From the NCBI RefSeq assembly GCF_040219215.1, contig NZ_JAVJSX010000024.1, positions 32,403-96,402 of the forward strand: a DNA stretch of 64,000 bases, in the 5' to 3' direction. How positions within the stretch are numbered: position 1 is the first letter of the stretch; each line of letters begins with the position of its first letter. The DNA comes from Thalassobaculum sp. (GTDB lineage Bacteria > Pseudomonadota > Alphaproteobacteria > Thalassobaculales > Thalassobaculaceae). The position numbers and the translations under genes were made by a program. The notes below the pieces were generated by a model, which saw only the letters and a program-made list of their open reading frames with translations, was not told the DNA's origin and searched no databases. Shown here in pieces: positions 7,220-29,544 of this stretch.

Positions 7220-8149
7220 ATGAAGATCACCCAGCGGGTCAAGAAGATCCTGGACTGCTACGAGAGCGACAACCCCGGGACCAAGGGCAACCTAGCCCGC
7301 ATCCTGATGCAGGGCAAGCTGGGGGGAACCGGCAAGGTCGTGATCCTGCCGGTCGACCAGGGCTTCGAGCACGGCCCGGCCCGCAGCTTCGCGCCGAATC
7401 CGGCCGCGTACGACCCGCACTATCACTTCAAGCTGGCGATCGACGCCGGGCTGTCGGCCTATGCCGCACCGCTCGGCATGCTGGAGGCCGGTGCCGACAG
7501 CTTTGCCGGTGCCATCCCGACCATCCTGAAGGTCAACTCCTCGAACAGCCTGTCGCGTGAGAAGGAAGGCCCGTACCAGGCGCTGACGGGCTCGGTCGGT
7601 GATGCTCTGCGGCTCGGCTGCTCAGCGATCGGCTTCACGATCTACCCGGGCTCGGACTCGGCGTTCGAGATGATGGGGCAGATCCGCGAGATGGCCGAGG
7701 AGGCCAAGTCGGTCGGCCTCGCCGTCGTGATCTGGTCGTATCCGCGCGGCGGCAACCTGTCGAAGGTCGGGGAAACCGCGGTCGACATCTGCGCCTACGC
7801 CGCCCACATGGCCGCCCTGATGGGCGCGCACATCATCAAGGTCAAGCCGCCGCAGCCCAACCTTGAGCTGGACGCCGCCAAGAAGGTCTACGAGGCCCAG
7901 AAGATCAAGACCGACACCCTGGCCGACCGCGTCCGCCACGTCATGCAGTCGTCGTTCGCCGGCCGCCGCATCGTGGTGTTCTCGGGCGGCGAGGCCAAGG
8001 ACCTGAACGGCATCCTGGGCGAGATCCGCGAACTCGCCGAGGGCGGCGCCAACGGCTCGATCATCGGCCGCAACACCTTCCAGCGGCCGCGTGACGAGGC
8101 CCTGGCGATGCTCGGCCAGATCATCGACATCTACCGCGGCAAGGCGTGA
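7220..8149 (+). CDS. Class I fructose-bisphosphate aldolase (DhnA/FbaB-type, DeoC/LacD superfamily)
   Basis: 309 aa. MKITQRVKKILDCYESDNPGTKGNLARIL...ILPVDQGFEHGP and the IIKVK Schiff-base lysine region resemble FbaB-type aldolases. Confidence 0.8.
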   Translation: MKITQRVKKILDCYESDNPGTKGNLARILMQGKLGGTGKVVILPVDQGFEHGPARSFAPNPAAYDPHYHFKLAIDAGLSAYAAPLGMLEAGADSFAGAIPTILKVNSSNSLSREKEGPYQALTGSVGDALRLGCSAIGFTIYPGSDSAFEMMGQIREMAEEAKSVGLAVVIWSYPRGGNLSKVGETAVDICAYAAHMAALMGAHIIKVKPPQPNLELDAAKKVYEAQKIKTDTLADRVRHVMQSSFAGRRIVVFSGGEAKDLNGILGEIRELAEGGANGSIIGRNTFQRPRDEALAMLGQIIDIYRGKA

Positions 8150-8838
8150 GCGACCGCAACAACATGGGGCTGGGGACGCCCGATGAACGCGTCCCCACCC
8201 AGCTCTACCTGATCACCCCGCCACGGATCGACGACCTCGACGGCTTCGCCGACCGGTTGGCCGAAGCGCTTGATGCCGGCCCGGTCGCGTGCCTGCAGAT
8301 CCGCCTGAAGGACGTCGACGACGACACGGTCCGGCGGGCCACCGAGCGGCTGCTGCCGGTCGCCCACGAGCGCGGCGTGCCGGTGCTGATGAACGATAGC
8401 GCCAAGCTGGCGCTGGAGACCGGCTGCGACGGCGTCCACGTCGGCCAGGAGGACACCCCCTACGCCGAGGCGCGCCGTCTGCTCGGTGGCCGGGCGATGA
8501 TCGGCGTCACGTGCAAGGCCAGCCGGCATCTGGCGATGGCTGCCGCCGAGGCCGGCGCCGACTACGTCGCGTTCGGCGCGTTTTTCGAGACCGCCACCAA
8601 GCAGTCGGAGACCCGGGCCCCGCTGGAGATCCTGGAGTGGTGGCAGGACATCGCCCTGGTGCCCTGCGTCGCGATCGGCGGCATCACTCCGGACAACTGC
8701 GGCCCGCTGGTCGAGGCCGGCGCCGATTTCCTGGCGGTGGTCGGGGCGGTCTGGAACCGCCCGGATGGGCCGGGAGCCGCGGTCAAGGCCTTCGAGGCGG
8801 CGATAGCCCGCAGCATGGACTCCGCGCGTTCCGCCTGA
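8146..8838 (+). CDS. thiE: Thiamine-phosphate synthase
   Basis: GTG start overlaps the fba stop (GTGA). LYLITPP...LQIRLKD...GVHVGQED...GVTCK...ADYVAFGAFF...AIGGIT motifs are typical of ThiE. Confidence 0.85.
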   Translation: MSDRNNMGLGTPDERVPTQLYLITPPRIDDLDGFADRLAEALDAGPVACLQIRLKDVDDDTVRRATERLLPVAHERGVPVLMNDSAKLALETGCDGVHVGQEDTPYAEARRLLGGRAMIGVTCKASRHLAMAAAEAGADYVAFGAFFETATKQSETRAPLEILEWWQDIALVPCVAIGGITPDNCGPLVEAGADFLAVVGAVWNRPDGPGAAVKAFEAAIARSMDSARSA

Positions 8839-20332: not shown

Positions 20333-20899
20333 ATGGCGCAACCGCACATGCCGAAGGCCACTGCCGTGTGGTTGATCGACAATACCGCGCTGACTTTCGA
20401 GCAGGTCGCCGCGTTCTGCGGTCTCCACCCCCTGGAGGTCCAGGCGATCGCCGACGGTGAAGTGTCTGCCGGCATCCAGGGTTTTGATCCGGTACTGGCC
20501 AACCAGCTGACGCGCGCCGAGATCGCGCGGTGCGAGGCTGACCCGAAAGCCCGCCTGCATATGGCGACCAGCGACCTGCCGAAGCCGATCGATAAGACCA
20601 AGGGTCCGAAATACATCCCTATCGCCAAGCGCGGCGACAAGCCGGACGCGATCGCCTGGCTGGTGAAGCACCATCAGGAACTGAAGGACGCGCAGATCGC
20701 GCGCCTGATCGGCACCACCAAGGACACCATCAACAAGATCCGTGAGCGCACCCACTGGAACAGCCCGAACATCCAGCCGCGCCACCCGGTGTTCCTCGGC
20801 CTGTGCAGCCAGCGCGACCTGGATGCCGCCATCGAGAAGGCCGGCGGCACCAAGGTACCGCCGGAGGAACAGCTCGAGTCGATCAGCGAACTGCCGTAA
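20333..20899 (+). CDS. DUF1013 family protein (cell-cycle transcriptional regulator TrcR-like)
   Basis: 188 aa. MPKATAVWLIDNTALTFEQVAAFCGLHPLEVQAIADGEV...TKDTINKIRERTHWN matches the conserved alphaproteobacterial DUF1013 pattern. Confidence 0.8.
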   Translation: MAQPHMPKATAVWLIDNTALTFEQVAAFCGLHPLEVQAIADGEVSAGIQGFDPVLANQLTRAEIARCEADPKARLHMATSDLPKPIDKTKGPKYIPIAKRGDKPDAIAWLVKHHQELKDAQIARLIGTTKDTINKIRERTHWNSPNIQPRHPVFLGLCSQRDLDAAIEKAGGTKVPPEEQLESISELP

Positions 20900-23258: not shown

Positions 23259-24330
23259 GAGCGGGACCCAGATGAATCCGGTCTTGGTCCAGCGTTCAAC
23301 AAACGCCGATTAACCGCAACGGTCCTTTTGGGGTTGTCATTTGCTGATGTAGCGTCGACACGGCACGACATGCTCGGACAGTTTGGGATTGGCCAGACAG
23401 AAACTGACTATGTGATAATCACAGTTCAGACAGTTATTTCTGCTCCCCCGAAACGCAGGTCGACTTTATCGGCCCGCTCCGAAGCGTGCATTAGAACGGG
23501 ATCTCGTCGTCAAGAGACGCCGGCTCTTGTGGCGAGGGCAATGGTTCGTGAGTACGAGGCGGCATCAGTTGCCGGACTTCATGGTTTTCGATCATTCGAC
23601 TCGCCGCGTCTCGATCTTGCTCTTCTTTAGCTTGGCCAACTGTCTCTTCAATCTTGTTAACCAGCTCACGAACTGCACTTGCGGCTCCACCGACATCTGC
23701 AATGGCACCTGCGACTGCAAGTGTGACCACGCCCACCGCAATGAATGTTAAATTGCGGGAATCAAGATCACTCTCGAATTTGTCAACTTGCCTGATGAGT
23801 TTATCGATTCGAGCTGGCGGCAAATTGAGTTTACGAACTTCTTCACGAAGATGAATTGTGAGCGTCCGAAGTCGATCGCGTGTCGCTCCTTCTAAAAATA
23901 TCGCTGTTCGGAGTTTGCGATCTGCTCCTTCCAACATAAGTTGCATCGTATAAAAGCTGAGGTCAGACACAAAATCATCAAAAGCGTGATCGTTCCAATT
24001 GCTTCGACGAGGCATTTCGATGTTGGAAATAGGTACAATATTCAAATATTTTGCCGCAGAAACCACTGAAGTCATATAACGCAGTCGAGCATCTTGAACA
24101 ACACCCCACTCTTCTTCATTACTGATTTGCTCATAGTACCGTTTTCGACAAATTTGCTCTATCTGGACAAATCGCTCCCGTGGATTCTCCGGTAGATCTT
24201 CTATTTCTTCCTGTGTGATAAGCAAATCCATAGAAATGCCTCCGCCAAGCGATCCGCTGAAATTACCACACAGTAGGTCTTTGAAAACCTTTTACCACCA
24301 AAACGGAGTGCCGGTGGTGGTATGCTGCCC
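23259..24330. other. AT-richer single-gene islet between two GC-rich core genes
   Basis: Composition shifts abruptly after the GNAT stop (23258) and returns at the SDR stop (24331). Codons of the enclosed gene mostly end in A/T, unlike its neighbours. No tRNA, integrase or clear direct repeats were seen. Confidence 0.6.
23491..24231 (-). CDS. Orphan hypothetical protein: helical N-domain, glycine-zipper-like hydrophobic segment, Pro-rich linker and an SSB-like C-terminal tip (LDDEIPF)
   Basis: 246-aa uninterrupted ORF in the AT-rich islet. It ends ...MPPRTHEPLPSPQEPASLDDEIPF*. Hydrophobic segment LTFIAVGVVTLAVAGAIADVGGAASAV spans residues 161-187. No family recognised. Confidence 0.75.
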   Translation of the reverse strand: MDLLITQEEIEDLPENPRERFVQIEQICRKRYYEQISNEEEWGVVQDARLRYMTSVVSAAKYLNIVPISNIEMPRRSNWNDHAFDDFVSDLSFYTMQLMLEGADRKLRTAIFLEGATRDRLRTLTIHLREEVRKLNLPPARIDKLIRQVDKFESDLDSRNLTFIAVGVVTLAVAGAIADVGGAASAVRELVNKIEETVGQAKEEQDRDAASRMIENHEVRQLMPPRTHEPLPSPQEPASLDDEIPF

Positions 24331-25116
24331 CTACTCCTTCGGCATCACCTGGCTGAGCGCCAGCCTGCCGCCGTCGGGGTAGATGGTCTGGCCGGTGAAG
24401 TAGGCGCTGTCGTCGGTGGCGAGGAACAGCGCCGCGCCGGCGATCTCCGACGGTTCGGCCGGGCGGCCGAGCGGGGTGCGGCTGCGGACCCGGTCCATCG
24501 CCTCCGGGTCGGTCAGCATCGCCGAACGGAACAGGTCGGTCGCCACGCTGCCGGGACCGATGGCGTTGACCCGAATGCCGTGGCGCGCCAGTTCCACCGC
24601 CATGGTCTTGGTCAACTGGTTCACCCCGCCCTTCGACGCGTTATAGGCGGCCAGGCCCAGCGGCACGATCACCGCGTTGACCGAGGCGGTGTTCACGATG
24701 ATGCCGCGGATCCCGCGGTCGACCATCCGCCGGGCCGCCTCCTGGCCGGTGTAGAACACCCCCTTCAGGTTGACCGCGATCACCCGGTCGAAGGTGGCGT
24801 CGTCCAATTCCAGGAACGGCGTGTTGTGGATGATGCCGGCGTTCGCCACCACCACGTCGAGCGAACCATAGGCCTCGATCGCTCGATCCATCAGGGACGC
24901 CACCTGCTGGCGGCTGGTGACATCGCAGGCGACGAACCGCGCCTCGTTGCCGGCCGCGCGGATCCGGCCGACGGTCTCGTCGCCGGCCAGCGGGTCCATG
25001 TCGGCGGCCACCACCTTGGCCCCCTCGGCGGCGAACCGCTCGGCAATGGCGGCACCGATTCCCCGTGCGGCCCCGGTAACGACGGCGACCTTGCCCTGCA
25101 GGCGCATGCTCTTCAT
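24331..25116 (-). CDS. SDR family oxidoreductase
   Basis: ATG at 25116 overlaps the upstream stop (ATGA). MKSMRLQGKVAVVTGAARGIGAAIA...NAGI...YNASKGG (TGxxxGxG, NAG and YxxxK motifs). Confidence 0.9.
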   Translation of the reverse strand: MKSMRLQGKVAVVTGAARGIGAAIAERFAAEGAKVVAADMDPLAGDETVGRIRAAGNEARFVACDVTSRQQVASLMDRAIEAYGSLDVVVANAGIIHNTPFLELDDATFDRVIAVNLKGVFYTGQEAARRMVDRGIRGIIVNTASVNAVIVPLGLAAYNASKGGVNQLTKTMAVELARHGIRVNAIGPGSVATDLFRSAMLTDPEAMDRVRSRTPLGRPAEPSEIAGAALFLATDDSAYFTGQTIYPDGGRLALSQVMPKE

Positions 25117-27011: not shown

Positions 27012-27654
27012 GTTTCCTCCCCTGTTCTCGTCGCGGCCTTAACACGACCACGATCCTCATTGGTCCGATCCTGATGGAGTCCGGGCCAGATGTCAGCAGG
27101 GTGGCGAGCCGGCAAGAGTGCCGATCACATCCGGATCGGCTTGCCGAGGTCGATGCGGTTCCTGTTCATGAAGGGTCAGATCCGCCTTCCGGTCGTCGGT
27201 CGGAGCGCTTGTCACGTTGGGGGTGGCGCAGCGGCTATATACATGGAGCGTGCCCGCGGCGCCCTCAAGGGAGCCGAAGGCAAACGTCTGACCTATCGAC
27301 GGACTGGTCTCGGGGCATAACAGCAGCGGGCGAATCACAGATCAAAAGTTAAAAAAAACTGGTCGAGTCGCTCTTACGCTGGGACCACCATCGCGAGCAG
27401 CGACGCAAGCGATAGTGGCTCTGCGCCTTCGTGTGAGGAAGATTTAGATTAAATGCTTGACGACAGTACGGCAAATCCGCCGAATCGTAAGATTGACCAA
27501 AGCGGACACCGGGGCCTGCCAGCCCCGGGCCGCCGGTTCCTAAACGGTCGGCCGTCCGGGAACATGCTCTTGAGAAGCGACAGTGACTTTCTATTGAGTC
27601 GCAAGCAAAGTCAATTGGACGGCCCAGTTTCAAGCCCATGAAAGGGTTAGTCAC

Positions 27655-27924
27655 ATGGCAGTCTATTTAATCACCTACGACCTGAATAACGAGACCGTGC
27701 GCCCGAAGATCGTCAAGGACATTAAGGCGTATGACAACTGGGCGTGCCTGTCCGAATCGTCATATGCCGTTGTCTCCGACGGGACGCCCGAAGCCGTCTA
27801 CAACTACCTGTCCAAGCATCTCGACGGTGACGACACTCTCTATGTGATCAGCCTTCGGCGACCGTATTCCGGGCAAGGCTCGAAGGCTGTGAACGACTGG
27901 CTCGACACCAACCTTCAGTGGTGA
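27655..27924 (+). CDS. Orphan Cas2-like small protein (ferredoxin-fold pattern), function unknown
   Basis: 89 aa, MAVYLITYDLNNETVRPKIVKDIKAYDNWACLSESSYAVVSDGTPEAVYNYLSKHLDGDDTLYVISL.... The beta-alpha-beta-beta-alpha-beta pattern and the N-terminal YxxxYD(I/L/V) strand with Asp9 resemble Cas2. G/C-ending codons support coding. Confidence 0.6.
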   Translation: MAVYLITYDLNNETVRPKIVKDIKAYDNWACLSESSYAVVSDGTPEAVYNYLSKHLDGDDTLYVISLRRPYSGQGSKAVNDWLDTNLQW

Positions 27925-28082
27925 ACCGCACCGAAGCCTGCGCCGTCAATCGGCGCCTCACCTCGGCAACCTGACCCGACGTGTCGGGCTGGAGCACAAG
28001 GCGATCATCCTCAAGCGCAACGCGCATTGTGGCGGTCCCGGATGAGATCGCTAAGCCTCGGTCAGCGCAAGCTGGCCGAGGT

Positions 28083-28229
28083 CTACTTTTCGCGACGCTC
28101 CTGGACCTTCGGAGGATGCTTTGGTTCTTCGTCCTTATGCGGCTTCAGCGTGGTCCGCAACAGGTTTCTGCCCACCTTCTTGAACCGAGGATCGTCCTCG
28201 GCCCGCTTGTCGTCCTTGGAGTCAGTCAT
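28083..28229 (-). CDS. Hypothetical 48-aa highly charged peptide
   Basis: MTDSKDDKRAEDDPRFKKVGRNLLRTTLKPHKDEEPKHPPKVQERREK. Strong G/C third-position bias, whereas the same-region plus-frame extension is Ser/Arg junk. Its ATG (28229-28227) overlaps the HEPN-like ATG (28228-28230) within CATG. Confidence 0.4.
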   Translation of the reverse strand: MTDSKDDKRAEDDPRFKKVGRNLLRTTLKPHKDEEPKHPPKVQERREK

Positions 28230-28761
28230 GAACGGGCGAATCCCCGGTGACGTTGTTGAAGCTCTATGCGGCGCTGTCGGCCATGTGGTCGTAAACTGGG
28301 CGTTTGTTGAGGTCGCAGTGGATACATGCATTGCGACGATCTACCAAAACGCCGGGGGCAAACACATAGAACGAGAGATCCCAAGCGCTATCGGTCGCAA
28401 GGTCAAATTTCTTCGTCGGTGCATCAAGCAGATCGGCGCGCTGTCACTATATCGCACGGAAGGCGACCAACTGCTCAATAGAGTGAACGCTGTGAAGGAC
28501 ACGCGGCACATGCTCGTGCACGGATGCGTCACCGGCTACGAGCGAGAAAATCACGCATTCACGTTTGCCAAGATGGACACCATCAACAACCGGACCCGGC
28601 ACAAACTCAATCCATCAAAGTTTACCGCACAGCAGATTCTCGATGACGGAACCGAGTGTCAGACCTTGGCCCGCGACCTGACTCGCTTCAGCCAACGCCT
28701 GTTCGAGGCTTTCCCTAGTGAGGATGAATTGAACAACGGCCCTAGCACCATCGGAGGCTAG
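28228..28761 (+). CDS. Hypothetical protein with a HEPN-like R-x4-H motif (candidate HEPN ribonuclease)
   Basis: 177 aa from the ATG at 28228 (GGAG at 28218-28221). It is predicted helical with ...LLNRVNAVKDTRHMLVHGCV..., where R93-x4-H98-G matches the HEPN signature R[NHD]xxxH(G). The upstream 67 codons of ORF 28027..28761 look non-coding. Confidence 0.6.
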   Translation: MNGRIPGDVVEALCGAVGHVVVNWAFVEVAVDTCIATIYQNAGGKHIEREIPSAIGRKVKFLRRCIKQIGALSLYRTEGDQLLNRVNAVKDTRHMLVHGCVTGYERENHAFTFAKMDTINNRTRHKLNPSKFTAQQILDDGTECQTLARDLTRFSQRLFEAFPSEDELNNGPSTIGG

Positions 28762-28928
28762 TGCGTCGCTCAATTTCCATTGTTCAGGGTCGACGCAACG
28801 TCCCGTTCAAGTGTTGCTAGTACACGGATTTGTCGGTCTAACCGAATCTTGAAAACTCTCTTTGTTCATTACAGAGATTCCGATGGCGCGAAATCAAGCG
28901 CCCTCTGGCGCTGCTTCACGCCAACGCC

Positions 28929-29123
28929 CTAGTCATGGCGACAAAAGAACCCCTTAACGGAATCGCGACGGTACATCAGCGTCGGGATCGAGATCTCGTC
29001 AGTCTCTTCTTTTGCATCAGGTTCAAAATTGCTTTGACTGATTTGCGCCGCGCTCGCCGGGACCGGGCCGCCGGTCAGCAGGAAGGGTGCGAAAGCCAGG
29101 AACGAGAGAGGTTTCTTCAGCAT
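28929..29123 (-). CDS. Possible small secreted protein
   Basis: 64 aa from the internal ATG: MLKKPLSFLAFAPFLLTGGPVPASA|AQISQSNFEPDAKEETDE.... Signal-peptide-like N-terminus with an ASA cleavage motif. Weak support otherwise. Confidence 0.35.
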   Translation of the reverse strand: MLKKPLSFLAFAPFLLTGGPVPASAAQISQSNFEPDAKEETDEISIPTLMYRRDSVKGFFCRHD

Positions 29124-29544
29124 GGGAGCGCTCCTCGATTTGAACCGTCGCAGCATGCGCTGCGCGCACGTGTCACTCTTCAGATGGCGCTCTTTTTATC
29201 GGTAATTTCGAAACATTTTCTTTCCAATCAATATTAAAAATTTGTAAAATTGGCTTATTGCAAGTTTAGAGTGTCGCTCTTCAAATCGACCGCGTAGTCG
29301 AGACACAGAATTGATGGCCGATTTCGGTCGCGTCGGTTGATGGTGCGAAAGCCGGATCGACACGCTTCGCCAGATGCCCGGTCGACCACCGGCACGGCCG
29401 CCGGTCAGATGATCGTGCGCAACGCGACGCCGCCGCTCTGATATGCGGAAAGCCACTTCAAGGCAGTCCTGGTCTGGCCCTCGTATCGGCCCCGGGTGAT
29501 GGTGCGCGGGTGGTTTCTCCGCCCTTAACGGTGAAGCGACAGCC

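Follow-up and report, generated by a model that had tools for sequence, protein, structure and literature searches.

A low-GC gene of the Thalassobaculum window and its family: predicted helical proteins that end in an SSB-type tip and may act as SSB-tip mimics

[quoted passage not shown] The reverse complement of 23494-23565, which is exactly the last 24 codons, translates to MPPRTHEPLPSPQEPASLDDEIPF and is followed directly by the TAA stop at 23491-23493; the original prediction that D-D-E-I-P-F stands immediately before the stop is thus borne out. The tail-coding stretch of the gene is GACGACGAGATCCCGTTC, and the SSB-tip peptide of the protein is PQEPASLDDEIPF. Across all six frames of the 64-kb window an acidic-IPF ending is unique to the open reading frame (ORF) 23491-24231, and no ssb gene is found in the window. 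The features of the locus are as follows.

23491..24231, reverse strand: complete coding sequence, 246 aa plus TAA stop (translation); member of the SSB-tipped, predicted helical family
23494..23517, reverse strand: C-terminal tip S-L-D-D-E-I-P-F, residues 239-246 (direct translation)
23518..23595, reverse strand: Pro-rich linker, residues 213-238, containing the conserved L-x-P-P-R
23554-23568, reverse strand: LMPPR, residues 222-226, the L-x-P-P-R motif of the window protein
23596..23682, reverse strand: long charged helix, residues 184-212, with the VGxAKEEQ motif (AlphaFold2 helix 184-212)
23689..23745, reverse strand: hydrophobic helix, residues 163-181, FIAVGVVTLAVAGAIADVG (Kyte-Doolittle hydropathy)
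23752..24231, reverse strand: N-terminal acidic body, residues 1-160, predicted to be all-helical (AlphaFold2 model m1ee78c668464)
24239..24243, reverse strand: Shine-Dalgarno sequence GGAGG, 7 nt upstream of the ATG (direct reading)
24262..24270, reverse strand: TGTGGTAAT, a possible extended -10 promoter element (inferred)
23260..24330, no strand: low-GC single-gene island, 1.07 kb (composition profile)

The protein had been taken for an orphan, yet it belongs to a large family. A word-indexed search returned 18 homologues at 30-99% identity, all of which keep the tip, and a phmmer search over 1.84 billion cluster representatives (50% clustering) returned 465 at E<=1e-3 and 183 at E<=1e-10. 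Relatives found by phmmer are mostly 235-260 aa long and align end to end, with residues 1-246 of the window protein covered and E values down to 1e-154. Further members, including proteins of Mesorhizobium isolates, were found by profile search. Among the 230 retrieved members with 200 aa or more, PF is the ending of 207, and 190 fit [DEN][DE][DE][IVL]PF; DDEIPF (131 members) and DDDIPF (26) are the tips seen most often, and the tip is kept down to approximately 20% identity. Most of the non-PF exceptions look like fragments.

Conservation within the family is concentrated at this end. In a 131-sequence alignment with a mean column identity of 27%, P245 and F246 are the sole invariant columns, and across the 207 PF-ending members the last eight positions are occupied by D (50 %), L (55 %), D (88 %), D (92 %), E (76 %) or D (23 %), I (92 %), P (100 %) and F (100 %). 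P14 and F21 of an N-terminal motif, ITxxExxxLPxxPxxxF, are nearly invariant in the same 131 sequences, as are F87, L145 and R160; G199 and K202 are conserved in the VGxAKEEQ helix, and P225 of L-x-P-P-R is kept in at least 90% of the sequences. More loosely defined, a [PGA]P[RKH] motif occurs in 163 of the 207 members, with a median distance of 23 residues to the C-terminus. In the alignments the window protein carries every conserved family column. With PF at 207/230 endings and P245 and F246 invariant, no feature of the family is under stronger selection than the tip, which is ancestral to all its members. Homologues without the tip, which would have marked it as a chance occurrence, are correspondingly absent from the close relatives (18/18 with tip) and account for few of the full-length ones (207/230 with tip).

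All nine taxonomically named carriers are Alphaproteobacteria, namely Asticcacaulis, Mesorhizobium (2), Methylobacterium (2), Methylorubrum, Methylosinus, Ensifer and an uncultured alphaproteobacterium, and the family is apparently alphaproteobacterial. The window likewise contains a full-length homologue of the cell-cycle transcriptional regulator TrcR at 20333-20899 on the forward strand (PF06242, E = 6e-64), which indicates an alphaproteobacterial host. One copy, at 7986-8746 of the locus on plasmid pCMU01 of Methylorubrum extorquens CM4 (L018), has a frameshift approximately 20 codons before its end. The annotated protein there ends …RLRVARQPANTT, DLDDDIPF-stop can still be read in another frame, and the neighbouring genes for Type IIG restriction-modification and PLD are intact; either the tip was lost recently or the sequencing was in error.

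The last seven residues of the window protein are identical to the alphaproteobacterial SSB C-terminal heptad LDDEIPF. Rhodobacter sphaeroides SSB ends in this heptad, as does SSB in 5,795 out of 18,841 assemblies of Alphaproteobacteria, with DLDDEIPF found in 4,352; whether phage RecT/RecE recombinases are compatible with a host is governed by the SSB C-terminal peptide (ETfinder, PMC13490951). Many family members end xFSADLDDEIPF, GGFDKSLDDEIPF or PAFEPGGMDDDIPF, and with endings of this xFSxDLDDEIPF type the resemblance to SSB often reaches 11-12 residues. As a control, 120 Rhizobiaceae SSBs, all with PF00436, were inspected, and 119 of them end GGNFSRD[LM]DDDIPF or a close variant. A sequence-profile search of the PDB gave noise apart from one alignment of the family tail, solely to the SSB tail of 7f2n, which at E = 4 is non-significant for so short a stretch. 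The tail region, residues 185-243 of P0008, gives weak matches (E = 0.1-0.5) to phrog_4477, phrog_2544 and phrog_18154, which comprise two phage families with no assigned function (393 and 362 positions), matched at their extreme C-termini, and a phage SSB family. Other phage families that are not annotated as SSBs may also carry SSB-like tips.

The tip is carried on a body of a different kind. AlphaFold2 with the 131-sequence alignment (model m1ee78c668464) gave an all-helical prediction with a predicted local distance difference test (pLDDT) score of 94 and a predicted template modelling (pTM) score of 0.81. Helices are placed at residues 17-36, 42-62, 81-108, 116-133, 139-156, 163-177 and 184-212, and non-helical structure is limited to two 3-residue bridges. 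Foldseek comparison of two AlphaFold2 models with the PDB and BFVD returned no match at E<0.1. The window protein has no Pfam match and no PADLOC family (PADLOC-DB v2.0.0) at E<=10, no NCBIfam match, and only insignificant matches in PHROGs v4 (E>=0.057). None of the 131 aligned members matches Pfam, with PF00436 in 0/131, and the longer members show no extra Pfam domain and no domain fusion. The predicted fold is accordingly regarded with confidence as novel. On sequence evidence, the family appears to be new as a kind of protein; it belongs to no catalogued defence, phage or curated family.

The body is also acidic, with a median isoelectric point (pI) of 5.7 and a net charge of -5 over 207 members; in the window protein, residues 1-160 have a pI of 5.2 and a net charge of -5. 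Such acidity argues against the binding of DNA. As modelled, the protein has no OB fold, the defining feature of SSB, and is not an SSB. The original prediction of an SSB-type tip on a non-SSB protein is therefore upheld in both its parts: the tip is that of SSB, and neither the OB fold nor PF00436 is present.

The segment leading to the tip had been described as Pro-rich and probably disordered. It is Pro-rich, comprising approximately 26 residues in the window protein against 50-70 Gly-rich residues in the retrieved SSBs, but with the deep alignment it may not be disordered. Successive blocks of the C-terminal 35 residues score pLDDT 80, 91, 80 and 67, with residues 211-240 at 80-91 and the last six at 67; in a shallow-alignment AlphaFold2 model the same region is below 50. 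From the high scores in the deep-alignment model, the linker may dock on the body, leaving the tip partly latched in cis.

The hydrophobic helix at residues 163-181 reaches a Kyte-Doolittle 19-residue mean of 2.12, and 1.6-2.2 in the 18 close homologues. Across the family the median is 1.36 and 35% of the 207 members reach 1.6. In light of this family-wide survey the helix is taken to belong to the protein core and not to span a membrane; a transmembrane reading was considered, was downgraded on that figure of 35%, and is doubtful.

The composition of the window gene differs sharply from that of its surroundings. The island at 23260-24330 has 43-53% GC against 63-73% in the flanks. The gene itself has a GC content of 0.47 and a GC content at third codon positions (GC3) of 0.40, against GC3 values of 0.90 and 0.92 in the flanking GNAT and acyl-CoA synthetase genes, so that the AT-rich body described in the original prediction is confirmed. 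Given this GC3 contrast and the low-GC island that holds a single gene, the gene is cargo gained by horizontal transfer, and it arrived alone. The same signature recurs at homologue loci, where the gene is lower in GC than its flanks in 16 of 17 cases; at the exception, L001, the two are level (0.58 vs 0.59).

The last six sense codons (GAC GAC GAG ATC CCG TTC) all end in G or C, as had been observed for the window copy, in a gene whose body prefers A/T-ending codons (for example, GAC 3 times vs GAT 13 times). The probability of six such codons is approximately 5e-4 from the codon usage of the body and 0.004 from GC3 alone, the test being post hoc. It had been proposed that the tail was copied from, or adapted to, a high-GC ssb gene. 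Across 17 homologous loci, however, there is no G/C-ending bias in the tail, with a mean tail GC3 of approximately 0.52 and a body GC3 of approximately 0.60. An ancestral tip, together with a tail GC3 below that of the body in homologues, speaks against recent copying from a high-GC ssb. The G/C-ending tail codons are peculiar to the window copy and may represent a gene-conversion patch confined to it.

Several smaller sequence features surround the gene. The possible extended -10 element was not called in a promoter consensus scan; a CTACyGTGTGGTA motif at the putative -10 region is common to the upstream region of the homologue locus L001. A perfect palindrome, TGTGAT-A-ATCACA, is located at 23411-23423, in the 230 nt of untranslated sequence that lie downstream of the gene. 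A direct repeat of 14 nt with 86% identity, at 23408-23421 (CTATGTGATAATCA) and 24211-24224 (CTGTGTGATAAGCA), brackets most of the gene, its second copy falling within codons 3-7. The palindrome and direct repeat could be an operator, an insertion scar or chance; the insertion-scar reading of the direct repeat was dropped, a 14-nt match at 86% being weak and probably due to chance. An inverted repeat, ACCACCA…TGGTGGT, at 24294-24321 on the reverse strand marks the island's upstream edge, immediately past the stop codon of the SDR gene (24331-24333); lacking a T-run, it would be at best a weak terminator.

The genomic contexts of relatives were collected in part by pattern-based locus scans, which need conserved 7-10-mers and gave 2 loci in genome contigs and 4 in metagenomes. 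The principal settings are listed below.

L010, Mesorhizobium: HNH protein and Shedu SduA (E = 3e-99)
L012, Mesorhizobium: on the same strand, 250 bp upstream, an OLD/GajA/AriA-like ATPase-TOPRIM gene
L014, metagenome: GajB-like UvrD helicase
L016, L017 and L018, three Methylobacteriaceae plasmids: Type IIG restriction-methyltransferase and PLD-family protein encoded directly downstream of the family gene
L023, Ensifer megaplasmid: AbiJ_NTD4/PDC-S32 gene upstream, overlapping
L025, metagenome: TIR_2 gene 11 nt downstream
L002, metagenome-assembled genome: weak ThsB-like TIR
L027, metagenome: tyrosine integrase, HNH protein and resolvase in a low-GC island of 7.6 kb
L024, 22-kb Methylosinus plasmid: resolvase and a RelE/ParE pair
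L001, metagenome: phage-like region that contains RusA

A recognised defence-type gene is adjacent to the family gene, or within two genes of it, at approximately 8 of 16 independent loci. The Type IIG proteins of L016-L018 match REase_MTase_IIG of PADLOC with 1243 bits (E reported as 0), and CRISPR I-E, TIR and Abi genes are located nearby. PADLOC models are also matched by the SduA, GajA/AriA/Old, GajB and PDC-S32 neighbours at the other loci. A tblastn search of 50,697 phage records, with three divergent family proteins as queries, gave no match, and no relative was found in IMG/VR. Occurrence in defence islands, integrase islands and small plasmids, no fixed partner and absence from these phage collections together make a role in conflict with invading DNA the most likely one.

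An accessible C-terminal D-D-(D/E)-I-P-F binds the SSB C-terminal tip (SSB-Ct) pockets of ExoI, RecQ, PriA, RecO, chi, DnaG, RecG, RadD and others. Phage annealing proteins also bind the SSB tip, and the tip peptide works on other scaffolds or as a free peptide. The family tip, D-L-D-D-(E/D)-I-P-F with its free carboxylate, could thus be inserted into the pocket by which SSB-interacting proteins dock on SSB, a basic ridge with a hydrophobic pocket that would read the terminal Pro-Phe carboxylate; the helical body would supply a second function. The protein would then be a decoy or competitor that captures proteins obliged to dock on the host SSB tip, candidate targets being phage single-strand-annealing recombinases of the RecT/Redbeta type and replication or repair factors exploited by invaders. 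Captured proteins would be neutralised, or their presence reported.

The conservation of the tip strongly suggests mimicry towards proteins that bind the SSB tip. Binding of SSB partners, the direction of the conflict (defence rather than counter-defence) and any downstream effect are what we infer. Taken as a whole, the statement that this is a mobile conflict-system protein displaying an SSB-tip mimic as decoy or competitor has somewhat less than an even chance of being correct. Its narrower form, a 'hub-tip decoy' in which the copy of the SSB tip traps or detects invader proteins that dock on SSB, with the tip perhaps latched in cis until engaged, is less probable and is put forward tentatively.

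Several observations weigh against a decoy or competitor of this kind. The fairly confident placement of the C-terminus in the model could mean that the tail is not freely available, and a constitutively exposed SSB tip should tax host genome maintenance. A recognisable effector or enzymatic domain is absent, leaving any signalling or killing step pure conjecture. In Ensifer, the sole host compared, the SSB ends DMDDDIPF and the family member VEDEDIPF, so that the two tips differ. An all-against-all BLAST of unannotated neighbours revealed no shared partner gene, and approximately 5 loci, about a third, including the window, are solitary among metabolic genes; the association with defence islands (approximately 8/16 loci, unscored statistically) is therefore anecdotal. 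Several copies are located on small plasmids adjoining resolvase, partition and toxin-antitoxin genes, and the L001 copy lies in its RusA-containing phage-like region. These plasmid and phage-like settings are equally consistent with a function in the service of the mobile element.

Such a function is the strongest of the alternatives. The protein may be an anti-host or counter-defence factor that titrates host SSB-interacting enzymes (ExoI, RecJ, RecQ, UDG, PriA, RecO) off SSB-coated DNA, thereby protecting or establishing incoming single-stranded DNA (ssDNA) or the DNA of a replicating element, or blunting a defence that needs those enzymes. Copies on four small or large plasmids near resolvase, ParA, toxin-antitoxin or relaxase genes, one copy in the RusA phage-like region and one in an integrase island, and a foreign GC signature at nearly every examined locus would all be expected of it, and the lack of an effector domain suits a pure competitor. 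Phage OB-fold SSB-like proteins with host-type tips are likewise suspected of interfering with ExoI (bioRxiv 10.64898/2026.04.29.721553). However, the three queries found no relative in the 50,697 phage genomes, nor was one found in IMG/VR; many copies are located amid bona fide defence genes, where defence rather than counter-defence genes cluster, and the plasmid copies are not in an obvious leading region. This alternative is a real possibility but a doubtful one.

The structural prediction raises another possibility, that the tip acts in cis, either as a structural element or as a latch for autoinhibition, or serves a private partner outside the SSB interactome, its likeness to SSB-Ct being convergent. 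A free tail would be expected to score below 50, whereas the C-terminal 35 residues have pLDDT values of 67-91 with the deep alignment, and the nearly invariant L-x-P-P-R and R160 could form an intramolecular site. The SSB tip itself folds back on its own OB domain. A match to SSB over 7-12 residues, including D-L-D-D-E and xFSxD, would be hard to reach by convergence, though, and a cis latch is compatible with mimicry in trans. As a replacement for mimicry this explanation is unlikely.

The hydrophobic helix raises the further possibility of a membrane-inserting abortive-infection effector, in which helix 163-181 would be a latent or real membrane segment, released when an invader protein engages the tip, and would depolarise the cell. 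The hydropathy of 2.12, the values of 1.6-2.2 in 18/18 close homologues, the constant position approximately 65 residues from the C-terminus and a small-residue (G/A) patterning in the alignment would be in keeping with this. In the wider family, however, the 1.6 level is reached by 35% of 207 members and some, such as P0183, are charged throughout the segment. In the AlphaFold2 model the N- and C-terminal parts are packed against each other as a single compact domain (pTM 0.81), which is incompatible with a membrane-spanning topology at rest, and there is no signal peptide. A membrane effector is thus quite improbable.

An ssDNA-binding protein without an OB fold, recruiting the normal SSB partners as the SSB analogue of a mobile element, would account for an SSB-type tip after a Pro-rich segment, and mobile elements commonly encode their own SSBs; with an acidic body (median pI 5.7, charge -5), no OB fold and no match to a nucleic-acid-binding family or structure, it is very unlikely. 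A chance or non-coding ORF is effectively refuted by the Shine-Dalgarno sequence, hundreds of end-to-end homologues, a confident model and a tip kept in 90% of the full-length members.

Several further observations were made at the loci of relatives. In the Methylobacteriaceae plasmids the SSB-tipped protein, a 937-aa Type IIG restriction-methyltransferase and a 347-aa PLD-family protein are encoded in this order on the same strand as a conserved cassette (L016 8986-13772, L017 8986-13773, L018 7986-12771) with differing flanks, and on pCMU01 IS5 elements flank the whole three-gene cassette. In this subfamily the cassette may be a functional unit. In L027 (1200-8800) the integrase is of the DUF6538 type, and the family gene is followed by two co-directional ORFs without a family, at gaps of 7 nt and -8 nt; one encodes 332 aa and the other 206 aa with several hydrophobic segments. 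A RibD_C (PF01872) gene is located 0.1-5 kb from the family gene in four unrelated loci (L002 9374-9913, L010 9903-10445, L012 13529-14176, L019 6253-6873), which could reflect an integration hotspot or simply a gene common in Hyphomicrobiales.

A perfect LexA-type box of the alphaproteobacterial kind, GAACACCTTGCGAAC (GAAC-N7-GAAC), is located 67 nt upstream of the gene start (8001) in L019, and one-mismatch boxes are found upstream in L002 and L020, with none in the window or the other scanned loci. Regulation by the SOS response was considered and dropped, the perfect box being confined to L019 and the one-mismatch matches being at chance level. Elsewhere in the window, a second low-GC island (27100-29450, 51-58% GC) contains ORFs at 27655-27924 and 28027-28761, both on the forward strand. 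The 89-aa ORF of this island matches phrog_1090, of no assigned function (E = 1e-16), and weakly Cas2 models (PADLOC E = 3.5e-4); the 244-aa ORF matches no family.

The SSB tip docks approximately 15-20 replication, repair and recombination enzymes and is an antibacterial drug target; it also sets the host range of phage recombineering proteins. The original prediction knew of no described system built in this way, and no natural non-SSB protein with an SSB tip was found described in the open-access literature, although subscription journals could hold one. If the 'hub-tip decoy' is real, no natural SSB-Ct mimic encoded as a protein would precede it, and no earlier defence logic would have imitated the SSB interactome hub. 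More generally, decoy or competitor mimicry would mean that the SSB interactome is manipulated by bacteria or by the mobile elements they carry, possibly through a new single-gene conflict system, and would offer both a ready-made genetic tool for perturbing SSB-partner interactions in Alphaproteobacteria and a natural template for SSB-Ct-mimetic inhibitors. Naming the family would annotate hundreds of proteins that are now called hypothetical.

Of known systems, bacterial SSB itself is the closest in its ending. The last 7-8 residues are shared (Rhizobiaceae SSBs end D[LM]DDDIPF), and in both the tip is located at the extreme C-terminus after a Pro-containing segment, with an invariant terminal Pro-Phe. 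The family differs from SSB in having neither an OB fold nor PF00436, its acidic, all-helical body being of a predicted novel fold. Its linker is short (approximately 25-30 residues) and may be ordered, as in the deep-alignment model, that of SSB long, Gly/Gln-rich and disordered, and its gene is accessory and horizontally mobile whereas SSB is essential. Phage and plasmid SSB paralogues, such as the SSBs of conjugative plasmids and Bas52_0087, an SSB-like phage protein with FDDDIPF that triggers DRT10, likewise display the host SSB tip from mobile elements and presumably interact with partners of the host SSB, for instance ExoI/SbcB. These have OB folds and bind ssDNA, of which the family, judging from its models, does neither; nor was the family found in the phage genomes searched.

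T7 gp2.5 is an OB-fold ssDNA-binding protein whose acidic tail ends in Phe and docks replication proteins. An acidic tail with a terminal aromatic residue as docking element is shared with the family, but gp2.5 has its OB fold, and the sequence and partners of its tail are T7-specific. Decoy or guard sensors of bacterial immunity detect invaders through the invaders' attack on a host hub. A bait that resembles a host hub and a location in defence islands are common to these sensors and the family, by analogy only, since the family has no effector domain, partner gene or demonstrated phage phenotype. Synthetic SSB-Ct mimetics (peptides, fragments and small molecules) occupy the SSB-Ct pocket of ExoI, RecO, DnaG, PriA and others, and the competition with SSB for the pocket that is proposed for the family is the same (PMC10143822, PMC5872125). 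Those mimetics are laboratory reagents, whereas the family would be a natural, encoded mimic displayed on a folded domain.

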